Virus record (IMG/VR): IMGVR_UViG_3300045988_065173
Location: 13,917 to 77,916 of that record
DNA from: a virus
Length of the DNA stretch: 64,000 nucleotides
Reading direction: 5' to 3' (one strand)
Shown: positions 25,555 to 47,573 of the stretch, piece by piece
How positions within the stretch are numbered: the stretch's first letter is position 1
How the letters are laid out: each line of letters begins with the position of its first letter
Notes under the pieces: generated by a model
Databases searched by the model: none
Seen by the model: the letters and a program-made list of their open reading frames with translations, nothing else
Told to the model about the DNA's origin: nothing
Position numbers and translations under genes: made by a program

Positions 25555-25628
25555 GTCCCGTTAGCTCAGTTGGATAGAGCAACAGCCTTCTAAGCTGTGG
25601 GTCGAAGGTTCGAATCCTTCACGGGATA
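25555..25628 (+). tRNA. tRNA-Arg(TCT)
   Basis: Cloverleaf with anticodon loop cuUCUaa. Confidence 0.8.
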
Positions 25629-25643
25629 CTTTATCATTAAAAT

Positions 25644-25718
25644 GACTCCGTAGCTCAGTTGGTCAGAGCACTACACTTTTAATGTAGGAGTCCTGGGTTC
25701 AAATCCCAGCGGAGTCAC
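25644..25718 (+). tRNA. tRNA-Lys(TTT)
   Basis: Cloverleaf with anticodon loop cuUUUaa. Confidence 0.8.
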
Positions 25719-25785
25719 AGGCAATTTTCTTGAATTTTTCTTTTTCTTACGCAGTGAGTATTTGTTGTGAAACACATACTCATAT

Positions 25786-25858
25786 CTGGATATAGTTCAG
25801 TAGGTAGAACGCTGCATTTGGGATGCAGAGGTCGTGTGTTCGAGCCACACTATCCAGA
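25786..25858 (+). tRNA. tRNA-Pro(TGG)
   Basis: Cloverleaf with anticodon loop uuUGGga. Confidence 0.8.
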
Positions 25859-26167
25859 CGAAGTAATCACCATTCACTAGTAGAATAGATAATGTCTATT
25901 GGGTGCCTACGTAGATGAATCCCTGATTACTCCAATTAACAGAGGTGAGTTCCTTAAAATTGTTACCACGCACTAGTGCGGCTATTAGCTACTAGAGGAC
26001 TTGGGGTGCCAAGAGGAAGAATTGTAGTAGTTATGTTAATTAGAACAAATCTGTTAATTGTTTTTATGGGATAGCGCCAACGATGGTGAGTTGGGACGGA
26101 CTGTAATTTAAAATTTTAAAATATGTTTGAGAATGTAAGCACTTGGAAAAAGTAGGGTGATATTGGA

Positions 26168-26521
26168 ATGGCTTATGCTATTGCATATTATTCTAAGTTA
26201 GGATATACTATTAGTATTCCCTTAACTGATTCACAAGATTATGACTTTATTATTGACACTGGAACAGACTTGTTAAAGGTACAAGCTAAGACTAGCTCTC
26301 AAGTATCTGAACATGGGATTCCTATTGTATCTCTTAAAACAAATGGAGGTAACAGAAGTGGTCAAGACAAGGTAAAAACTTTTGAGAATAATAGTTCGGA
26401 TTTATTATTTGTTTTATTAGAAAATGGAAGTTGTTACTCAATTCCGACTAGAAATATCACAAGTAAAAACACTATTAATCTAGGAGAAAAGTATTTACCA
26501 TATAAAGTTGAACTATTTTAA
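26168..26521 (+). CDS. putative PD-(D/E)XK / Hjc-like nuclease (paralog of 29622-30014)
   Basis: IAYYSKLGYTISIPLTDSQDYDFIIDTGTDLLKVQAKTSS shows an Hjc-like G…D(I/F)I(I/A)D…(K/R)VQ/SVKT pattern. Paralogous to 29622-30014. Confidence 0.4.
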   Translation: MAYAIAYYSKLGYTISIPLTDSQDYDFIIDTGTDLLKVQAKTSSQVSEHGIPIVSLKTNGGNRSGQDKVKTFENNSSDLLFVLLENGSCYSIPTRNITSKNTINLGEKYLPYKVELF

Positions 26522-44406: not shown

Positions 44407-44622
44407 AAAAGCTATTAAGCTTAGAGAACAAGCTAACTTTAAGATTTTAACTAGACTAGCTCAAATCATAGAATGTAGTCCACATTTGCGATTCCAGCAA
44501 ATATTATCTAATTACAAAGTCTGTGAATTAGGTAAGGACAAATTCTATGAGGAGAGTATAGAAACTCTTAGGAATTTAGAGGGAGAAATGAACAAAAAGT
44601 TGAACACTTAATAGATTTAAAA

Positions 44623-46638
44623 ATGGAATTTAAGAATTTTAAGAAAGATGTAGAAGCTGCTTTCAACAATATGATTGCAGAAAACCTGTTTGTTGCTAAT
44701 GTTGATAAAGACCTCCTTTGGATGGGCTACCTTCTGTCGTTTGAGGACGAAACTGTTAGACAAGACCATAACTGCAATGCTTGTAAATCTTTTATCCGGC
44801 ATTATGGTAAAGTTGTAGCGATTGACCCTCAAACTTATAAGATTAAAACATTCTGGGATGATGTGCATACTCCTGGATATGAGAAAACAGCACAGGCTTT
44901 AGCTAAATTAGTTAAGGAAGCTGGAATAGGAGACGTCTTTATTCAAGATGTGAATGAATTTCATGGTTGTGACCATAATGTTCAATTGCTTCCTGATGGA
45001 ACAACCAGGACTTGGACGCATCTGTACGTAACTATTCCGAATAGCTTCAAATTCAACAGGCGAGTTCATGGTTTTGACTCTGCTGCCGGTTACAGGGGAG
45101 ATGTCAGAGCAAGAGCTGGGGTATTTGAACGCTCTATCAGCGAGCTTAAGCTGGAGGCAGTTGAAACTGTTATTGAGCTTATAGAAGGAAACAATCTCTA
45201 TAGAGGTGCGGAGTTCTTGAAGAGTTTGGAGGAATTTAGAAGAACACTAGTTACTGCTCAAACTCTGAGTCCAGAAGTAAGAACTAACTATTGCTGGTTA
45301 AACTTTAAGTCTCCTATAGCTAAGATTAGAAATACGGCTATGGGAACTTTACTTATTGACCTAAGCAATGGTGTAGATCTGGAGAAAGCCGTAAGAGCGT
45401 ATGAAAACATCATGGCTCCTGCTAATTATAAGAGACCTACTGCTCTTATTACTAAGAAACAAATTGAAGCCGCTCAGAAGAAGGTAGAAGAGCTAGGTCT
45501 TACTGATGCACTTCCTCGTCGTCATGCTCATGTGGAAGATATTTCTGTGAATGATGTTCTATTCGTAAATAGAGATACTAGAGCAAAGATGAAGGGAGGA
45601 ATGTTTGATATGCTCTCTGAGACTTCTACAGTAAATCCAAAAGAGTTTACCAAAGCCCAAGAGGTTTCTGCTGATGCCTTTGTCAAGAATATACTTCCTG
45701 GAGCTAAGGAGGTTTCTATCTTGGTAGAGAACAGACACATTCCCAACTTTGTTACTCTGACTGCTCCTGAGAATCCGGATGCTGGACAGTTGTTTAAGTG
45801 GAATAACAACTTTGCTTGGGTTTATAATGGTTCTGTAGCTGATTCTTTCAAGGAGAAGGTAAAGGCTGCTGGTGGAAATGTAGACGGCTTCATGAGATGC
45901 TCTCTTCACTGGTTTAACTATGATGACCTGGACCTTCATGTAACCGAGCCTAGTGGAAGAGAAATCTATTTTGGAAGTAAAACTGGTCATACTGGAGGGA
46001 CTCTTGATGTTGACATGAACGCAGGCTCTGGAAAAACTAGAGATGCTGTTGAGAACATCATATGGACAGACCCTAGCAGACTAAGACCGGGAGATTATGT
46101 GGTAAGAGTGCACAACTTCAATAAGAGAGAAAGTATTGATTTTGGTTTCGAAATGGAAATTGAGATTAATGGAGAACTTCACAAATTCCAGTATGGAAAA
46201 GTAGTTCCGAACGATGAATATGTTGAAGTTGCTCGTATCCATGTTGATGGACAAAGAAACATTTCCATGACTCCTACCATTAAAGAGGGTTCTACATCGT
46301 TCAAATCTATTAACGAGTGGGGAATTGATACAATGAAATTCCAGAAGGTTTCTTGTATTATGTTCTCTCCTAACCATTGGGAAGGCAATGCTATAGGAAA
46401 CAAGCATCTGTTCTTTATGATAGACGGATGTAAGAATCCAGATCCTGTTAGAGGTTTCTTTAATGAATATCTGAGAGCTGACCTTGAAAAGGAGCATAAA
46501 AGAGTGTTTGAAGCTCTTGGTTCTAGAGCAAAAGCTGAGTACAGTGATGACCAGTTAAGTGGATTGGGATTTTCTAGCACATCACACAATGATGTTGTTG
46601 TAAAAGTTGATAATAAATCATTTAAAATTATTTTCTAA
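44623..46638 (+). CDS. large hypothetical protein (671 aa)
   Basis: Long intact ORF. No family recognised by eye. Confidence 0.55.
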   Translation: MEFKNFKKDVEAAFNNMIAENLFVANVDKDLLWMGYLLSFEDETVRQDHNCNACKSFIRHYGKVVAIDPQTYKIKTFWDDVHTPGYEKTAQALAKLVKEAGIGDVFIQDVNEFHGCDHNVQLLPDGTTRTWTHLYVTIPNSFKFNRRVHGFDSAAGYRGDVRARAGVFERSISELKLEAVETVIELIEGNNLYRGAEFLKSLEEFRRTLVTAQTLSPEVRTNYCWLNFKSPIAKIRNTAMGTLLIDLSNGVDLEKAVRAYENIMAPANYKRPTALITKKQIEAAQKKVEELGLTDALPRRHAHVEDISVNDVLFVNRDTRAKMKGGMFDMLSETSTVNPKEFTKAQEVSADAFVKNILPGAKEVSILVENRHIPNFVTLTAPENPDAGQLFKWNNNFAWVYNGSVADSFKEKVKAAGGNVDGFMRCSLHWFNYDDLDLHVTEPSGREIYFGSKTGHTGGTLDVDMNAGSGKTRDAVENIIWTDPSRLRPGDYVVRVHNFNKRESIDFGFEMEIEINGELHKFQYGKVVPNDEYVEVARIHVDGQRNISMTPTIKEGSTSFKSINEWGIDTMKFQKVSCIMFSPNHWEGNAIGNKHLFFMIDGCKNPDPVRGFFNEYLRADLEKEHKRVFEALGSRAKAEYSDDQLSGLGFSSTSHNDVVVKVDNKSFKIIF

Positions 46639-46640
46639 TT

Positions 46641-47015
46641 ATGTTTAAACAAGCATCAAAAATGAAGTTGCGTTTCGCAACTAGTAAAGGTAATCTGAGT
46701 GTAGAAGATTTGTGGGACTTGAGCCTGCCAGTATTGGATAAATTAGCTGTTTCTTATGATGAGGAACTAGCTAAAAGTCCAAGAAAGTCTTTCATAACTA
46801 ATGATACTCCTAGCAATACCGAACTTGAATTGAAGTTCAATATTGTGAAGGAGATTATAACGGATAAACTAAAAGAGAAGGCTGACAGAGAGACAGCTAA
46901 GAATAAGGCTGCTGAGAAAGCTCGCTTAACGGAACTGTTAGCTAAGAAACAATCTGAGAAGTTAGAAAGCTTGTCCGAAGATGAAATCAAACGGAGACTC
47001 GCCGAACTCGGGTAA
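46641..47015 (+). CDS. hypothetical protein
   Basis: 124-aa ORF. Confidence 0.5.
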   Translation: MFKQASKMKLRFATSKGNLSVEDLWDLSLPVLDKLAVSYDEELAKSPRKSFITNDTPSNTELELKFNIVKEIITDKLKEKADRETAKNKAAEKARLTELLAKKQSEKLESLSEDEIKRRLAELG

Positions 47016-47478
47016 GTGTGTAGTATTAAAGACTGTTAGTCCACAAATCTTAGACAAACTGAGAGAAAGCGGATTAACAGTTTGTATTTGTTGTGAGTTT
47101 GAAGGGACAGCCTGGTTGGTATTTAGACCTGGCTTGCCCTTTGATGTTCATGGAGAGGGTTACGATTCTGAAGAGCTTGGGTTAATTGGTATAGAATCTA
47201 ATCTAAGATACTTTGAAAAAGTTACTCCAAACTATATTGATTGTGGAACTGATGTTGATAAGTTTATTAACACCTGTCTACAATTTAAGTAAGTTAACAG
47301 TTTTTAACTTTGAATTTAACAATTCGGAGACTAATCTAGTAAGAAGATTAGAAAAATGATACTTTAGGTTATCTCTCGGTAGCGGTTCGTGAGAATAGAA
47401 AATTTACAATTACTCTGTCCAAATTGTCATGCTTTTACTGATAATTACCGTGGCAAGAACATAAGTAAATAAAAGGAT

Positions 47479-47573
47479 GGCGCAGTGTCGGAACTGGTAT
47501 ACGAAACGCACTTAAAATGCGTTGCCCTTTATGGGATTGAGGGTTCGACTCCCTTCTGCGTCACTGCAGTTAA
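47479..47573 (+). tRNA. tRNA-Leu(TAA), type II
   Basis: Anticodon loop cuUAAaa, long variable arm, acceptor ggcgcag/ctgcgtc. Confidence 0.75.

Follow-up and report, generated by a model that had tools for sequence, protein, structure and literature searches.

The stretch of DNA analysed here (64,000 nucleotides (nt) of the IMG/VR virus record IMGVR_UViG_3300045988_065173, hereafter the window) contains, at 25555-47573, the transfer RNA (tRNA) gene array of a human-gut phage of ~185-190 kb that reads the codon TAG as Gln. Two genes of this array, for tRNA-Tyr(GTA) and tRNA-Ser(TGA), are interrupted at the anticodon loop by a cassette formed by an open reading frame (ORF) for a predicted homing endonuclease and a complete tRNA gene with the same anticodon, and a further element is a chimera of two tRNA genes. 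With ARAGORN, 24 tRNA genes are called in the window, of which 22 lie within 25555-47573. Rfam confirms them and adds a tRNA-Ala, as well as a match at 41625-41680 that covers no more than positions 9-63 of the tRNA model (32.9 bits); the tRNA-shaped genes of the region number 23. The large complement reported by an earlier note, made from the sequence alone, is borne out: every isotype that it listed was recovered, Tyr(GTA) and Cys(GCA) are truly present in duplicate, and the oddities that it pointed to lie where they were placed, without either program giving them a clean canonical fold. The size of this complement is unsurprising, since large tRNA sets, together with suppressor tRNAs and variable homing endonucleases, have already been described for recoded gut phages (10.1101/2021.08.26.457843; PMC12386605). 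For comparison, about 80 related loci were used, the genomes being metagenome assemblies; some of the counts given here are over 45 relatives, and those on the status of the insertion sites over 39 relatives. The features discussed are collected in Table 1.

Two tRNA genes split by endonuclease cassettes

In relatives, the position of the first split gene is occupied by an intact 85-nt tRNA-Tyr(GTA), found intact in 22 of them, whereas in the window this gene is present as two halves, the first of which ends just past the anticodon. The second split gene is, in relatives, an intact tRNA-Ser(TGA) of 90 nt. In both cases the two halves correspond to one intact tRNA known from relatives. The earlier note had recognised the 3' halves as remnants of tRNAs, rightly so, as they match intact genes of relatives; the 5' halves, and the endonuclease ORFs between the halves, were absent from it, as were the two tRNA(CUA) genes that lie just before 25555-47573. 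The empty site for cassette 1 is precise in three relatives (L075, L062, and L077), where both flanks map to a single position of the locus. The cassettes consist of a leader (16 nt in cassette 1, 34 nt in cassette 2), the ORF, a spacer (5 nt and 1 nt, respectively), and the complete tRNA with the same anticodon, at whose 3' end the insert stops. For ORF 1, the ATG at 26123 is the true start. The anticodon stem of the cassette tRNA-Tyr is CAGCA/TGCTG, versus ACGGA/TCCGT in the resident gene.

Table 1. Features of the tRNA array and the two suppressor tRNA genes (window positions)
Feature	Position	Strand	Evidence and remarks
5' half (nt 1-39) of resident tRNA-Tyr(GTA)	26068-26106	+	97-100% identity to intact genes of relatives
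Cassette 1 (504 bp): endonuclease ORF and putative replacement tRNA-Tyr	26107-26610	+	Absent from relatives
ORF 1, predicted PD-(D/E)XK homing-endonuclease gene, 132 codons	26123-26521	+	PF11645, E 4.8e-13; in-frame TAG at 26153-26155 read as Gln
Cassette tRNA-Tyr(GTA), complete	26527-26610	+	ARAGORN; Rfam 34.1 bits
3' half (nt 39-85) of resident tRNA-Tyr(GTA)	26611-26657	+	100% identity to intact orthologues, E 3e-22
5' half (nt 1-34) of resident tRNA-Ser(TGA)	29554-29587	+	94-100% identity to intact genes, 100% in several alleles
Cassette 2 (521 bp), replacing 4 nt of the anticodon loop	29588-30108	+	Empty site in L052, L077, L047
ORF 2, predicted endonuclease gene	29622-30014	+	PF11645, E 5e-9; 42% identity to ORF 1
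Putative replacement tRNA-Ser(TGA), complete	30016-30108	+	Within cassette 2
3' half (nt 39-90) of resident tRNA-Ser(TGA)	30109-30160	+	92-100% identity to intact orthologues, 100% in three alleles, E 3e-25
Chimeric pseudo-tRNA: 5' part of tRNA-CAU, 3' end of tRNA-Thr(TGT)	41616-41689	+	Both parents intact in relatives, ~3 kb apart
tRNA-like gene with 14-nt anticodon loop AACTAAAGGCATTG	39109-39189	+	Rfam 50.9 bits; perfect acceptor, D and T arms
Initiator-like tRNA-CAU, disrupted T stem GT[CATAAAC]GG / CCTAC	39405-39484	+	C1xA72, A11:U24
tRNA-Ala(TGC), G3:U70	41334-41406	+	Rfam 39.5 bits, 3 non-standard pairs; missed by default ARAGORN
Most simply a gutted tRNA: 7-bp acceptor GGAGTGT/ACACTCC and T arm around ~140 nt of AT-rich sequence	34265-34433	+	z -3.2
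tRNA(CUA), amber suppressor	19821-19893	-	ARAGORN, Rfam; close derivative of the phage tRNA-Gln (33768-33840)
Second tRNA(CUA) suppressor	23289-23359	+	ARAGORN, Rfam; very small D loop, different body

The two ORFs score 49.8 and 36.6 bits against PF11645, for which the Pfam cut-off is 26.1. When searched as single proteins against the PDB, their sole sequence match is 2OST (E 0.005 and 0.087), and a profile of 26 homologues finds 2OST alone (E 8e-7). An AlphaFold2 (AF2) model of ORF 2, with a predicted local distance difference test score (pLDDT) of 90.4, was compared with the PDB by Foldseek, where the sole matches at E<1e-3 are the four chains of 2OST, that is, I-Ssp6803I (template modelling score, TM, 0.69-0.80). 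The block PL.D ... YD ... V.VK, invariant in the 26 homologues, is aligned to the same block of 2OST. PF11645, 2OST, and I-Ssp6803I are tabulated as one family (PMC3424549), whose founding enzyme has its gene in a group I intron of 655 nt within tRNA-fMet of Synechocystis (PMC1995217). Judged by sequence profile and predicted fold, both ORFs are genes for homing endonucleases of the I-Ssp6803I family.

Ten tRNA-Tyr genes, eight of them linked to an endonuclease ORF, retain the cloverleaf: 14 of its 17 pairs show compensatory changes, and a single cell of the comparison is broken; the anticodon loop is CTGTAAA in eight of the ten, and their anticodon stems are all different. By this pattern of substitutions, the cassette tRNAs are real genes under functional constraint.

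The distribution of the cassettes is sporadic. Among the 39 relatives, no other genome shares the split of the first tRNA-Tyr site, which is confined to the window. The second tRNA-Tyr gene is split in L049 by a cassette made of a tRNA-Tyr and an ORF 60% identical, and it has been replaced outright in L051, with no halves left. The Ser site is split in L062 and L069 besides the window, keeps the 5' half but has lost the 3' half in seven relatives, and is intact in most others. Ser cassettes with both halves are also found in L062, L069, L116-L119, L121, and L150, L119 and L121 being the contigs of L062 and L069 fetched again. Presence in one close relative and a precise empty site in the target gene of another is how a mobile element behaves.

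The association extends to the wider family, for which 55 IMG/VR loci with a homologue of the endonuclease were inspected. There are tRNAs within 1.5 kb at 53 of these loci, and in more than half a tRNA starts within ~40 nt of the end of the ORF. A split-tRNA signature, defined as a 5' acceptor strand upstream of the ORF and an orphan T arm with the matching 3' acceptor strand downstream of it, surrounds the ORF at 14 loci, versus one of 55 in a control window. At eight to nine of the 14 split loci, the halves enclose a complete tRNA of their own isotype, in the order ORF-tRNA in L116-119, L121, L150, and L166 and in the order tRNA-ORF in L132; L088, which comes from a separate metagenome look-up and lies outside the 55 loci, has the same layout as L132. 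In two others of the 14, L124 and L149, an Rfam group I intron (61 and 46 bits, respectively) follows directly after the ORF inside tRNA-Ser(TGA). One endonuclease family therefore occupies tRNA anticodon loops in two interchangeable formats, the intron-borne one, which is of a known kind, and the tRNA-compensated one described here. In another two of the 14, L113 (1344-1940) and L155 (1427-1950), the ORF lies by itself between halves of a tRNA-Tyr, and the stop codon of the L113 ORF is located in a duplicated copy of the anticodon loop.

Chimeric and non-canonical tRNA genes

The element at 41616-41689 is one of two with a CAU anticodon to which the earlier note had ascribed unpairable acceptors, suggesting that they could be tRNA-Ile2/initiator-like or pseudogenes. 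In 41616-41689 the acceptor is indeed unpairable (5' strand CGCGGGA versus 3' strand TGGGGGA), because the 5' part of a tRNA-CAU is joined to the 3' end of a tRNA-Thr, and the element is a pseudogene. In 39405-39484, on the contrary, six of the seven acceptor positions pair, the T stem being the defective part, and this gene is the initiator-like one. The crossover of the chimera lies within the T-loop string CGGTTCGAATCCGA (41666-41679), which both parents share, and the same junction is found in L018, L019, and L026. The parent tRNA-CAU of relatives is predicted to fold into a perfect cloverleaf, whereas the chimera is not. Between the two parents, relatives carry three ORFs, a transfer-messenger RNA (tmRNA; Rfam 66 bits in L004), a tRNA-Ile(GAT), and usually a tRNA-Asp(GTC); a tmRNA is present in 34 of 45 relatives and absent from the window. 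Compared with these gene orders, the chimera marks a deletion of ~3 kb that would have removed the tmRNA, the tRNA-Ile, and the tRNA-Asp. Other fusions at the T-loop join an initiator-like tRNA to a tRNA-Thr in L025 and a tRNA-Ala to the 3' end of the tmRNA in L001, and smaller internal deletions affect several other tRNAs of relatives. Full-length tmRNAs lie in the tRNA arrays of L004 (8475-9029), L036 (7683-8197), and L088 (1348-1794), among which are unrelated phages with the same endonuclease family.

The gene at 39109-39189, whose sound arms and enlarged loop the earlier note had described correctly, occurs as five alleles with loops of 13-19 nt; their body does not vary, the anticodon stem covaries (CCCAC/GTGGG versus CCGC/GCGG), and the same five alleles recur in independent gut metagenomes. 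The consensus of the loop is A-N-C-N-A-(T)-A-A-R-R-C-A-T-Y-R, in which CAT, two bases from the 3' stem, is the invariant triplet. No allele with a 7-nt loop was found in IMG/VR or in the metagenomes, only the five enlarged ones, and no canonical paralogue exists among 250 distinct tRNAs of relatives. The gene is missing in 25 of 45 relatives and carries a deletion in the T arm in three. The isotype that ARAGORN assigns varies with the allele (Leu, Ser, or Tyr), and its intron mode gives CUA with a 7-nt intron. An intron-containing amber suppressor was discarded, since the CTA is not conserved and orthologues have CAA or CCA there, and so was a canonical elongator or initiator, which would require a 7-nt anticodon loop with U33. 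The constrained body together with the fast-changing loop argues for some function.

Bacterial initiator tRNAs are recognised by C1xA72, A11:U24, an anticodon stem with three G-C pairs, and a T arm of normal form. The gene at 39405-39484 has two G-C pairs in the anticodon stem and only two of five pairs in the T stem, and in its predicted fold the T arm is replaced by another hairpin. A distant orthologue in L004 has the canonical form; another distant one, in L044, carries a long variable arm (7474-7560), the loop of which repeats the anticodon-loop sequence TCATAA. The tRNA-Ala at 41334-41406, listed as canonical by the earlier note, departs from the standard form, with only four standard acceptor pairs in the usual register, or seven if one base is bulged; even so, it is 100% conserved in 34 of 45 relatives compared. 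These two genes and that at 39109-39189 are inherited unchanged across many genomes.

The separated T arm and acceptor of 34265-34433, which the earlier note had seen, are real and enclose unrelated sequence. The ends of the element resemble the tRNA found at the same slot in L003, L010, and L043, and it occurs in only two other contigs; a gutted tRNA is its simplest reading. A reduced tmRNA was rejected: the pair is A3-U70 where a tmRNA has G3:U70, Rfam gives no tmRNA hit at E<=5, and the element does not resemble the tmRNA of relatives. A dedicated RNA function is possible for this element, as it is for 39109-39189 and 39405-39484. Directly after it, at 34467-34874(+), lies a gene for a protein of 135 amino acids with the cyclic-phosphodiesterase domain of fungal tRNA ligase (PF08302, E 9e-8), which may be part of an RNA-repair function.

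Some irregularities of the relatives have simpler grounds. The small insertions suspected in their tRNA-Asn (86-87 nt) are boundary effects of ARAGORN on a single 73-nt gene, and their long tRNA-Cys (86-87 nt), at first taken for an insertion, is a separate Cys gene whose variable region is long. Relatives also differ in the tRNA-like element that occupies the slot following tRNA-Met (L019 3010-3080, L037 1090-1160, L003 325-398); one of the elements at this slot has odd loops and is missed by ARAGORN, and another is a tRNA-CAU in which position 33 is G.

Proposed homing with a replacement tRNA, and its alternatives

The mechanism that we propose for the cassettes starts with an endonuclease of the I-Ssp6803I family, which would cut a resident tRNA gene of the same anticodon at the anticodon loop. 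Repair from a cassette-bearing genome would then copy the ORF and its tRNA into the break, with the tRNA halves serving as homology arms. The resident gene would be destroyed in the process, leaving its 5' and 3' halves at the flanks of the insert, and the cassette tRNA would act as a working replacement, with the same anticodon loop and a different stem, and would presumably escape cleavage. The anticodon stem-loop, a natural pseudo-palindrome at the DNA level, is suited to an enzyme that recognises a pseudo-palindromic site (PMC3384342); since the stem-loop fits this type of site, the differences in the stem would be what makes the cassette tRNA immune. The replacement tRNA would thus do the job that a self-splicing group I intron does in the founding member and in the sister elements of other phages. 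Because of its in-frame TAG, ORF 1 would be made only once the suppressor tRNAs act, and a suppression-dependent expression of this kind was proposed by Borges et al. for an intron endonuclease in Agate phages. In a second process, recombination between near-identical T-loops would yield fusions that take their 5' part from one tRNA gene and their 3' part from a second. This T-loop motif is the very one recognised by T4 SegB (PMC2330249), and it may be speculated that endonuclease cuts seed these deletions. We consider it quite probable that homing cassettes and T-loop deletions together have remodelled the array, which explains most of its aberrant elements.

Several points weigh against this reading. 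Target recognition and cleavage by the enzyme, the immunity of the cassette tRNA, and homing itself are inferred from the sequences. The compensation is not universal, as in L113 and L155 the ORF stands alone between the tRNA halves, with no intron and no spare tRNA detected. Both L051 and the Ser cassettes without a 3' half could also be read as a free-standing endonuclease beside a tRNA. Every genome compared was assembled from a metagenome, although the junctions are found again in independent assemblies. Finally, the three conserved non-canonical tRNAs (39109-39189, 39405-39484, and the tRNA-Ala) are not accounted for.

It is on these three genes that the best of the alternatives relies, namely that the aberrant elements are purpose-built RNAs expressed in infection, as decoys for host anticodon nucleases, processing substrates, or tRNA-derived regulators, along the lines suggested by the earlier note. 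The invariant body and hypervariable loop of 39109-39189, with five alleles unchanged across many metagenomes and none of them of 7 nt, would agree with it, as would the 97-100% conservation of 39405-39484 and the tRNA-Ala in spite of their structural defects, and phage tRNAs are known to counter tRNA-cleaving defences (PMC10264068, PMC11464382, PMC11555353). However, the proposal fails for the two half-tRNAs and the chimera, which the comparison of the ~80 loci identifies as by-products of events at the DNA level: their orthologues are intact at the same positions in relatives, their presence is only sporadic, one half is already gone in some lineages, and the chimera has no predicted fold. 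Even the enlarged-loop gene is dispensed with or truncated in a good part of the relatives (see above). As an explanation of the elements at large, we regard it as unlikely.

Much less probable is that RNA-level joining, through a ribozyme or phage RNA repair, reunites the halves of the split genes, so that the resident tRNAs would still be functional. The idea draws on the self-splicing group I introns that hold the founding enzyme and the sister elements of L124 and L149 at the same place in tRNA genes, and on the tRNA-ligase-type cyclic-phosphodiesterase domain encoded at 34467-34874. Contrary to these cases, the Rfam search that detects a group I intron (Intron_gpI) in L124 and L149 gives no match in 18-48.5 kb of the window, even at E<=5, and once the ORF and the embedded tRNA are discounted, the inserts have just 22 and 35 nt left, too little for a ribozyme core. 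In addition, 4 nt of the anticodon loop are lost at the Ser site, where the insert takes their place, the halves are subject to decay in relatives, and a spare tRNA with the same anticodon is always supplied with the split gene (for L113 and L155, see above). Least credible of all is that an integrase-driven element left the 3' halves behind as duplications of its attachment site: even though a duplicated 3' part beside an intact tRNA is the textbook sign of integration into a tRNA gene, the inserts are of ~0.5 kb with a PD-(D/E)XK endonuclease as their only ORF and no integrase, the intact tRNA differs from the half over its whole length and is no reconstituted copy, and a matching 5' half is kept as well.

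Under the homing reading, the closest known system is I-Ssp6803I itself, which shares with the ORFs of the window the family, the fold, the type of target (a tRNA gene), and the region of insertion (the anticodon loop). The inserts are also of comparable size, 504-521 bp here and 655 bp for the intron of I-Ssp6803I (PMC1995217). However, that intron resides in a cyanobacterial chromosome (Synechocystis PCC 6803) and has a ribozyme, whereas the inserts in the phage array carry a complete tRNA instead, which means replacement rather than splicing; the translation of ORF 1, unlike that of I-Ssp6803I, needs suppression of a TAG. T4 SegB (PMC2330249) is likewise an endonuclease of a phage tRNA cluster that recognises a tRNA-gene sequence and drags neighbouring tRNA genes along, and the segB-tRNA-Tyr unit (PMC13096335), which amplifies to escape Septu, is, as here, a physical unit of endonuclease and tRNA-Tyr of ~0.5-0.7 kb. 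Contrary to the elements of the window, which belong to another nuclease family and sit inside a tRNA gene at the anticodon loop with both halves left, SegB is a free-standing GIY-YIG enzyme encoded between genes and directed to the T-loop motif. Integrative elements that target tRNA genes also bring tRNA sequence to compensate for the disruption of their target, but they carry a 3' segment and move by means of an integrase, whereas the cassettes, of ~0.5 kb, carry a whole independent tRNA and are proposed to move by endonuclease and repair.

In the reports on recoded gut phages cited above, no tRNA genes split by an endonuclease plus tRNA, T-loop chimeras, or enlarged-loop gene were found, and in gut jumbo phages the PDDEXK_5 endonucleases were merely counted (PMC12880540). 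A literature search, whose coverage is incomplete, found no endonuclease and replacement tRNA inside a split tRNA gene, and the claim of novelty is provisional. With this caution we put forward, tentatively and with slightly more doubt than conviction, the joint proposal that the cassettes are a distinct, undescribed class of homing elements driving isoacceptor duplication and allele turnover in phage tRNA arrays, and that the gene at 39109-39189 encodes a functional non-decoding RNA with a loop evolving under conflict, for instance as bait for a tRNA-targeting nuclease.

Homing elements usually spare their host gene in one of three ways: introns through RNA splicing, inteins through protein splicing, and others through an intergenic position. 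If our reading is true, the cassettes would represent a fourth solution, in which the target tRNA gene is destroyed and a cleavage-immune copy is brought along. It would also offer a testable mechanism for the duplicated isoacceptors, half-tRNAs, and chimeric pseudo-tRNAs of phage arrays, for which regulatory RNA should then not be the default annotation. One endonuclease family with two interchangeable ways of neutralising the damage, an intron or a spare tRNA, would constitute a clean natural experiment, and the triplets of enzyme, sensitive target, and immune target, the targets differing mainly in the anticodon stem, would be useful to study and re-engineer the specificity of PD-(D/E)XK enzymes. 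As for the T-loop deletions, they can take out a tmRNA and several tRNAs at once, so that close relatives would differ in their translation toolkit.

The recoded phage and neighbouring genes

The nearest relatives of the window in the databases are unannotated fragments named "Bacteriophage sp." from human faeces, and those in IMG/VR are contigs of 94-270 kb, about 20 of them of 183-192 kb. Gene strand and guanine-cytosine (GC) skew switch at ~18-22 kb of the window. On the minus strand of 1-15350, the genes are shattered under the standard code, and ORFs of 425-792 codons appear once TAG is taken as a sense codon; the five largest late/structural ORFs translated there contain 8-33 TAG codons each. 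Among the late/structural genes that are readable only in this way is that for the large terminase subunit (11805-14183, -). These ORFs, and a tRNA(CUA) that resembles tRNA-Gln, place the window in a phage recoded from TAG to Gln, and the recoding is of the genetic code 15 type. Independent evidence for Gln comes from ORF 1, whose in-frame TAG falls, in the alignment, on a position that is Gln in 25 of 25 homologues. In this respect the phage resembles the recoded gut phages described as crAss-like, Jade, Sapphire, and Agate (10.1101/2021.08.26.457843; PMC12386605), with which it has in common a low GC content, recoding of TAG in the late genes, ~25 tRNAs with CUA suppressors, a homing endonuclease gene with recoded stops, and homing endonucleases as the main difference between close relatives.

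Other endonuclease-like genes lie within the array. The ORF at 35633-36010(+) has a NUMOD1/helix-turn-helix (HTH) DNA-binding module and would extend to 218 codons if three TAGs are read through, and an HNH endonuclease of 93 amino acids is encoded at 39959-40240(+), followed by ~1 kb (40240-41330) nearly free of ORFs. Upstream of the array, a RAGATH-14 RNA (23042-23233, +; 150 bits) and a Pistol self-cleaving ribozyme (23692-23765, +; 62 bits) flank the second suppressor tRNA and an ORF of 91 codons, and this pair could provide ribozyme processing of the suppressor transcript. The early genes include those for two SPFH/Band 7 domain proteins and a nicotinamide/nicotinate phosphoribosyltransferase (31025-32983, 51609-52436, 53291-54853).

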